The notes below the pieces were generated by a model. It saw nothing but the letters and a program-made list of their open reading frames with translations. It did no database searches and was not told the origin of the DNA. Of a DNA stretch of 64,000 nucleotides, positions 2,170 to 2,233 are shown one piece after another. Both the position numbers and the translations under genes were made by a program. The stretch lies in the NCBI RefSeq assembly GCF_053078305.1, contig NZ_CP166879.1, one strand, 5' to 3'. Numbering within the stretch: position 1 is the stretch's first letter; each line of letters starts with the position of its first letter.

Positions 2170-2233
2170 CTTCCGATGTAGACCCGTATTCTTCGCCTGT
2201 ACCACGGGTCGGTTTTAGTACAGGCGTTTTCTT
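2170..2233 (+). ncRNA. rydC: RydC small RNA (Hfq-dependent, pseudoknotted), 64 nt
   Basis: Sequence CTTCCGATGTAGACCCGTATTCTTCGCCTGTACCACGGGTCGGTTTTAGTACAGGCGTTTTCTT recognised as RydC; convergent with cybB. Confidence 0.75.

Follow-up and report, generated by a model that had tools for sequence, protein, structure and literature searches.

The rydC small RNA gene of Escherichia coli between ydcA and cybB: pseudoknot conservation, a candidate YieP operator and the junction with cybB

Genes at the locus

Positions 2170-2233 (plus strand) of the window, i.e. of the whole 64-kb stretch of DNA analysed, almost certainly represent the chromosomal rydC gene of E. coli. The gene is flanked by two protein-encoding genes on the opposite strand.

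2170-2233, plus strand: rydC, Hfq-dependent small RNA RydC, 64 nt (Rfam RF00505; identity to K-12 b4597)
2244-2774, minus strand: cybB, cytochrome b561 / superoxide oxidase, convergent with rydC (E. coli records; Pfam PF01292, E-value 1e-24)
1826-1999, minus strand: ydcA, secreted small protein of 57 aa, divergent from rydC (annotated as ydcA or periplasmic protein in E. coli records)

The covariance-model search proposed with the initial annotation was run against the whole 64 kb and was passed. The RydC model (Rfam RF00505, gathering score 48) gave a full-length match to plus-strand positions 2170-2233 (all 64 model positions; 92.5 bits, E-value 5.2e-17), which substantiates the description of this stretch as a RydC-like sequence of 64 nt. 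Every character of the RydC family accessible to sequence analysis was found, namely covariance-model score, seed, pseudoknot, terminator and tail, and position next to cybB. The 64 nt were completely identical to rydC (b4597) of K-12 MG1655, in which the reference annotation places the gene between cybB and ydcA; neighbours, orientation, spacing and -10 box were also shared, and two substitutions were found in 501 bp around rydC. RydC expression in the source strain is presumably like that in K-12.

Of 5426 complete E. coli genomes, 5411 contain RydC in single copy; the identical 64-mer is present in 4063. Five rydC matches among the E. coli genomes were located on records labelled as plasmid, and in the laboratory strain Trp01 the region 1800-2300 was present in two places, with a break near window position 2052. 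The same region was 100% identical to the O157:H7 PV15-279 record, with which the whole window shared 97.6-99% identity apart from an indel. At 6516-6657, about 140 bp of the window correspond to about 1.8 kb in PV15-279, comprising four hypothetical genes between hrpA and ydcF. A tandem repeat with a 30-nt unit (24872-25222; 11.8 copies, 91% matches) was aligned to a region annotated in O157:H7 with a proline-rich-domain protein and an autotransporter (ydbA-like).

The gene is already known: it is annotated in K-12, represented by an Rfam family and by a crystal structure with Hfq, and its regulator has been mapped. The automated RefSeq annotation of the E. coli records examined does not include rydC, and sequence scans will therefore go on finding it anew.

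The neighbours had been named correctly: cybB was identified by PF01292 and E. coli records, and ydcA by E. coli records and by the published position of rydC between cybB and ydcA (PMC11340327). No Pfam family match was obtained for the YdcA protein. Both distances given previously were reproduced, as 10 nt (2234-2243) are located between RydC and the stop codon of cybB (2244-2246, minus strand) and 170 nt (2000-2169) between the ydcA ATG and RydC +1. The further statement that three transcription units share about 420 bp applies to ydcA and rydC, which lie entirely within 1826-2246, but not to cybB, of which only the last codon is included. The cybB coding sequence adds 531 bp, its promoter is located beyond 2774, and the three units together span about 1 kb. 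A cybB homologue downstream of rydC on the opposite strand was found in the window and in all homologous loci examined (7/7); the convergent arrangement is also reported in PMC11340327. A lenient scan for a ydcA promoter returned only weak candidates with 8/12 matches, e.g. a -35 element at 2158-2153 with a -10 element at 2135-2130.

Next to ydcA, the cluster is continued directly by yncP (1732-1800, minus strand) and the hokB/sokB locus. yncP, on the strand of cybB and ydcA, encodes a small protein of 22 aa annotated in K-12 and RefSeq, for which no Pfam family match was obtained; at the 3' end of yncP, 23 nt are shared with the convergent coding sequence of hokB (1605-1754). The type I toxin-antitoxin locus formed by hokB, mokB and sokB extends from 1459 to 1754. 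The Rfam sok match in it (1459-1610, 109.7 bits) was called on the plus strand, which is the leader strand of the hokB/mokB mRNA, whereas the K-12 sokB RNA maps to the minus strand (1501-1557), so that Rfam and the reference annotation name opposite strands. On the other side of cybB, gapC (2963-3964, plus strand) encodes an intact glyceraldehyde-3-phosphate dehydrogenase (GAPDH) of 333 aa with both Pfam domains, in contrast to the frameshifted gapC pseudogene of K-12.

Structure and conservation of the RNA

Four structural elements were assigned to the 64 nt.

2170-2182, plus strand: single-stranded 5' seed, RydC nt 1-13, CUUCCGAUGUAGA (invariance; pairing with cfa)
2181-2187 (GACCCGU) and 2204-2210 (ACGGGUC), plus strand: arms of pseudoknot helix 1 (perfect 7-nt inverted repeat)
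2194-2202 (CGCCUGUAC) and 2218-2226 (GUACAGGCG), plus strand: arms of pseudoknot helix 2, which is the terminator hairpin (perfect 9-nt inverted repeat)
2227-2233, plus strand: U-rich 3' tail UUUUCUU, terminator tract and binding site for the proximal face of Hfq (sequence; PMC4337610)

Seed nucleotides 1-12 were invariant in all 11 aligned sequences, and nucleotide 13 was A in eight and G in three of them. Since cfa of the source strain is located outside the window, the K-12 gene was used as target. In an ungapped scan, RydC nt 3-13 formed 11 contiguous pairs with positions -109 to -99 of the K-12 cfa mRNA, the best site in the untranslated region and identical to the published target site (PMC4337610). 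An interrupted RNAduplex prediction for the seed against the same region was spurious and was discarded in favour of the published site recovered by the ungapped scan.

The two helices are interleaved; in DNA letters, CGCCTGTAC (2194-2202) of helix 2 pairs with GTACAGGCG (2218-2226). Helix 2 is the minimum free energy (MFE) hairpin of the 64 nt, and helix 1 is not contained in the MFE fold. The MFE was no better than that of shuffled sequences (z = -0.48) because the folding program cannot model pseudoknots. The pseudoknot fold has been seen in the RydC-Hfq crystal structure, and the same study provides the experimental basis of Hfq binding and stabilisation and established the role of the U-rich tail (PMC4337610). 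The sequence determinants for Hfq, i.e. the U tail and the U23/U24 and U46/U47 steps, are present in the window. Term-seq of K-12 (PMC7815308, supplement) placed strong 3' ends at 1491443 and 1491442, which correspond to window positions 2233 and 2234, and RydC may end at either position.

The pseudoknot was examined by comparative analysis of 11 aligned sequences, which included homologues from Escherichia albertii (L009), a divergent E. coli lineage (L084), UTI89, WL297, Citrobacter sp. R56 (L046) and four C. koseri-like metagenomic contigs (L124-L127). A search of genome contigs with the pattern TATAAT-N(4-8)-CTTCCGATGT was unspecific, with three real loci (E. albertii, an E. coli lineage and Citrobacter sp. 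R56) among at least 120 loci listed. The scan of metagenome contigs was built to exclude the E. coli allele and returned four loci, all of them C. koseri-like. In L124, frmR-frmA was found upstream of rydC, in line with the published position of frmR in C. koseri (PMC11340327).

All 176 pair cells of both helices contained standard pairs (176/176). In helix 2, four of nine pairs were changed on both sides between Escherichia and the Citrobacter-like sequences, and all remained paired; variation in helix 1 led only to G.U pairs, where the invariance in L124-L127 is given by construction, as the metagenome search pattern fixed the helix-1 arms. In the controls, slid partners were paired at 26-44%, and none of 500 shuffles reached the observed covariation score. 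The sample is small and drawn from two clades, with no Salmonella or Klebsiella sequence among the 11, and a single lineage split may account for all four compensatory pairs in helix 2.

Reading frames were considered as well. RydC nt 7-12 (2176-2181) read AUG-UAG, a minimal start-stop within the seed, and the mechanical listing of open reading frames contains a frame of 53 aa at 2112-2273 (plus strand), so that the locus might encode a small protein instead. The longer frame begins 58 nt before the transcription start and extends past the mapped 3' end. Only 6 nt precede the AUG of the start-stop, which is too short for a Shine-Dalgarno sequence, and conservation follows the RNA structure and no reading frame. 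Both frames were rejected for these reasons, and a small protein has next to no probability. The AUG-UAG, judged by its position without room for a ribosome-binding site, is probably meaningless.

Promoter, candidate YieP operator and proposed working of rydC

Two elements were found immediately upstream of the RydC start.

2159-2164, plus strand: rydC -10 hexamer TATAAT, positions -11 to -6 relative to the start at 2170 (read from the sequence)
2138-2158, no strand assigned: perfect 9-3-9 palindrome TTTATTTGT-CAT-ACAAATAAA, candidate YieP operator (inverted repeat, 100% complementary)

The TATAAT hexamer ends 5 nt before the rydC start and is conserved in Escherichia and in Citrobacter sp. 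R56. Inspection of the rydC promoter sequence revealed no recognisable -35 element, in agreement with the published description of a perfect -10 without an obvious -35 (PMC11340327). The palindrome extends from -32 to -12, directly next to the -10 box. All 15 positions of the YieP motif atTTGTaTGAcaAAT, derived from ChIP-exo by Nguyen-Vo et al. 2020 (PMC7642389), are matched by the core of the palindrome (2141-2155, minus strand; -29 to -15). Elsewhere in the 64 kb, no YieP-motif site with fewer than three mismatches was found, the next-best sites having three. The palindrome is kept in Escherichia, in Citrobacter sp. R56 and in three of the four C. koseri-like loci, while the sequence farther upstream is unrelated; the central triplet alternates between CAT and ATG among the loci.

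Bianco et al. 2024 (PMC11340327) have shown by genetics that YieP, a regulator of the GntR family (GntR/FadR type), represses rydC, by a factor of 20 in E. coli and of 7.5 in Salmonella. In the same study, a YieP site was not recognised at rydC, the upstream sequence was described as little conserved, and rydC was noted as absent from the first YieP ChIP-exo regulon. No report of direct YieP binding at the rydC promoter was found in the literature consulted, including PMC11340327. Expression of ydcA is not affected by deletion of yieP (published RT-qPCR). From the motif match and the conserved palindrome abutting the -10 box, we infer direct repression by promoter occlusion, and judged from the sequence the palindrome at 2138-2158 is likely the operator through which YieP exerts its published effect on rydC. 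The perfect motif match in the promoter spacer thus provides a concrete, testable operator for a repression that is known genetically.

The only difference between the rydC promoters of the window and K-12 is located inside the palindrome: position 2145 is G in the window, which completes the palindrome and the 15/15 motif match, whereas A in K-12 introduces one mismatch. In motif orientation this is motif position 11, a position of lower information. An exact 41-mer search of the 5426 complete genomes yielded the G allele in 3995 and the K-12 A allele in 1239 (about 23%). The K-12 laboratory strain therefore carries a minority variant of the candidate YieP site among sequenced E. coli.

For the proposed working of rydC, identity, family membership, pseudoknot covariation, seed-cfa complementarity, promoter elements and motif match were taken from the present analysis, and Hfq binding, cfa activation, YieP repression and the link between FnrS and yieP from the literature. 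A sigma-70 promoter with consensus -10 (2159-2164) and no -35 would direct transcription from 2170. The RNA of 64-65 nt folds as an H-type pseudoknot (helix 1, 2181-2187/2204-2210; helix 2, 2194-2202/2218-2226), in which helix 2 and the UUUUCUU tail serve both as intrinsic terminator and as Hfq anchor, and the free 5' seed pairs with target mRNAs. According to the literature, the long isoform of cfa is activated by RydC, which blocks RNase E and Rho; pheA and trpE are weakly repressed, and csgD and yejABEF are also affected. YieP normally keeps rydC off; bound to the palindrome it would fill the promoter spacer and exclude RNA polymerase. FnrS, which is encoded in the same window (39831-39948) and represses yieP translation (PMC11340327), thereby induces rydC indirectly.

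The window contains three further genes of Hfq-dependent small RNAs: FnrS (39831-39948, minus strand), MicC (34900-35020, minus strand) and McaS (43326-43421, plus strand). The distance between MicC and FnrS is only about 5 kb (about 34900-40000), and ttcA and uspF are direct neighbours in the collinear record of O157. Since in K-12 the Rac prophage is located between ttcA and uspF, it seems to be absent here. The paa cluster seems to be absent between rydC and micC. McaS is named, like RydC, among the small RNAs that repress csgD (PMC6061853).

The rydC/cybB junction and comparison with known systems

The gap between the RydC 3' end and the cybB stop codon comprises 8-10 nt in E. coli, the L084 lineage and E. 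albertii, compared to 36-51 nt in the Citrobacter-like loci. In the latter, a canonical intrinsic terminator of cybB, ACCCCGCG-TAA-TGCGGGGT followed by TTCTTTT, is located between the cybB stop and the RydC 3' end. A separate cybB terminator was found in the gap of none of the Escherichia sequences compared. As judged from these sequences, the tight packing of rydC and cybB is specific to Escherichia. Two incremental additions to the known gene are made here: a likely operator of YieP, together with its variant in K-12, and the apparent Escherichia-specific loss of the cybB terminator.

On the cybB strand of the window, a terminator scan found no terminator-like site from 2243 to 2000, and the RydC hairpin read on this strand is followed by AAGAAUAC and no U tract. 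The K-12 Term-seq ends listed include none in cybB sense between the cybB stop and ydcA; the sole cybB-sense 3' end listed is weak and is located inside the coding sequence, at window position 2260. A hairpin is formed by the last cybB codons (2253-2274); the weak Term-seq end follows it closely and corresponds to nucleotide 514 of the coding sequence (531 nt). A transcript ending at 2260 would be an mRNA without a stop codon.

The hairpin could primarily be a bidirectional terminator for cybB, with the small RNA as an incidental product. Its distance of 10 nt from the cybB stop and the missing of any other terminator in Escherichia would be consistent with this function. A U tract and 3' ends on both strands, by which a bidirectional intrinsic terminator was to be recognised, were not found, since on the cybB strand the hairpin has no U tract behind it and no K-12 Term-seq end is listed there; the candidate was rejected. 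Moreover, rydC has its own promoter, a candidate operator and an invariant seed outside the hairpin, RydC persists unchanged in the Citrobacter-like loci where cybB has a terminator of its own, and RydC function is established experimentally (PMC4337610). A hairpin serving mainly cybB is therefore considered very improbable.

In addition to its established role as a trans-acting small RNA, and without excluding it, RydC could be related to cybB by cis-antisense pairing or transcriptional interference. As cybB and ydcA are encoded on the same strand, read-through from cybB antisense to rydC is possible, and the lack of the Citrobacter-like cybB terminator in Escherichia makes it plausible. In the case of cis-antisense pairing, the cybB transcript would run antisense over all of rydC, and cybB 3' untranslated regions could titrate RydC. 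In the case of interference, transcription of derepressed rydC could collide with cybB transcripts or truncate them. Points in favour are the short gap in Escherichia compared to the wider one with GC hairpin and U tract in the Citrobacter-like loci, the absence of a terminator-like site on the cybB strand from 2243 to 2000, the sequence AAGAAUAC in place of a U tract behind the RydC hairpin, and the Term-seq list with only the weak end at 2260. On the other hand, the extension of the cybB transcript over rydC is a conjecture from sequence, Rho could end cybB transcripts just past the stop codon, and encounters may be rare with rydC normally repressed and cybB weakly expressed. In the literature searched, no functional link between cybB and RydC was found. 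Overall, such an additional relation is regarded as unlikely.

An extended version would be that Escherichia lost the dedicated cybB terminator, that cybB mRNA ends only after antisense passage through rydC, and that both genes are coupled in this way. This is likewise regarded as unlikely. If true, cybB 3' untranslated regions could act as a sponge for RydC, and rydC transcription relieved from YieP, or a YieP roadblock at 2138-2158, could shape the 3' ends of cybB and read-through into ydcA.

RydC of the Citrobacter-like loci (L046; L124-L127) resembles that of the window in seed, helix 1 sequence, pseudoknot topology, U tail and convergence with cybB, and the upstream palindrome is present as TATTTGT-NNN-ACAAATA in four of the five loci. 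The differences comprise the four helix-2 pairs, all of them compensatory, a -10 sequence of TATACT in L124-L127, the cybB terminator with the wider gap, and frmR as upstream neighbour instead of ydcA. In L125 (137-260), an RydC identical to that of L124 is located in another upstream context, with a terminator-like AAAACCCGCCTCGGCGGGTTTTT about 35 nt upstream; in this locus, the YieP-type palindrome has a degenerate left half.

GadY is a cis-antisense small RNA that overlaps the end of the convergent gadX mRNA in the 3' untranslated region, and both the overlap and the resulting processing have been demonstrated. The arrangement at rydC is similar in that the gene of a small RNA is convergent with, and abuts, the 3' end of a protein-encoding gene. 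It differs in that an overlap of the rydC and cybB transcripts is conjectural, whereas the known activity of RydC is exerted in trans via its 5' seed.
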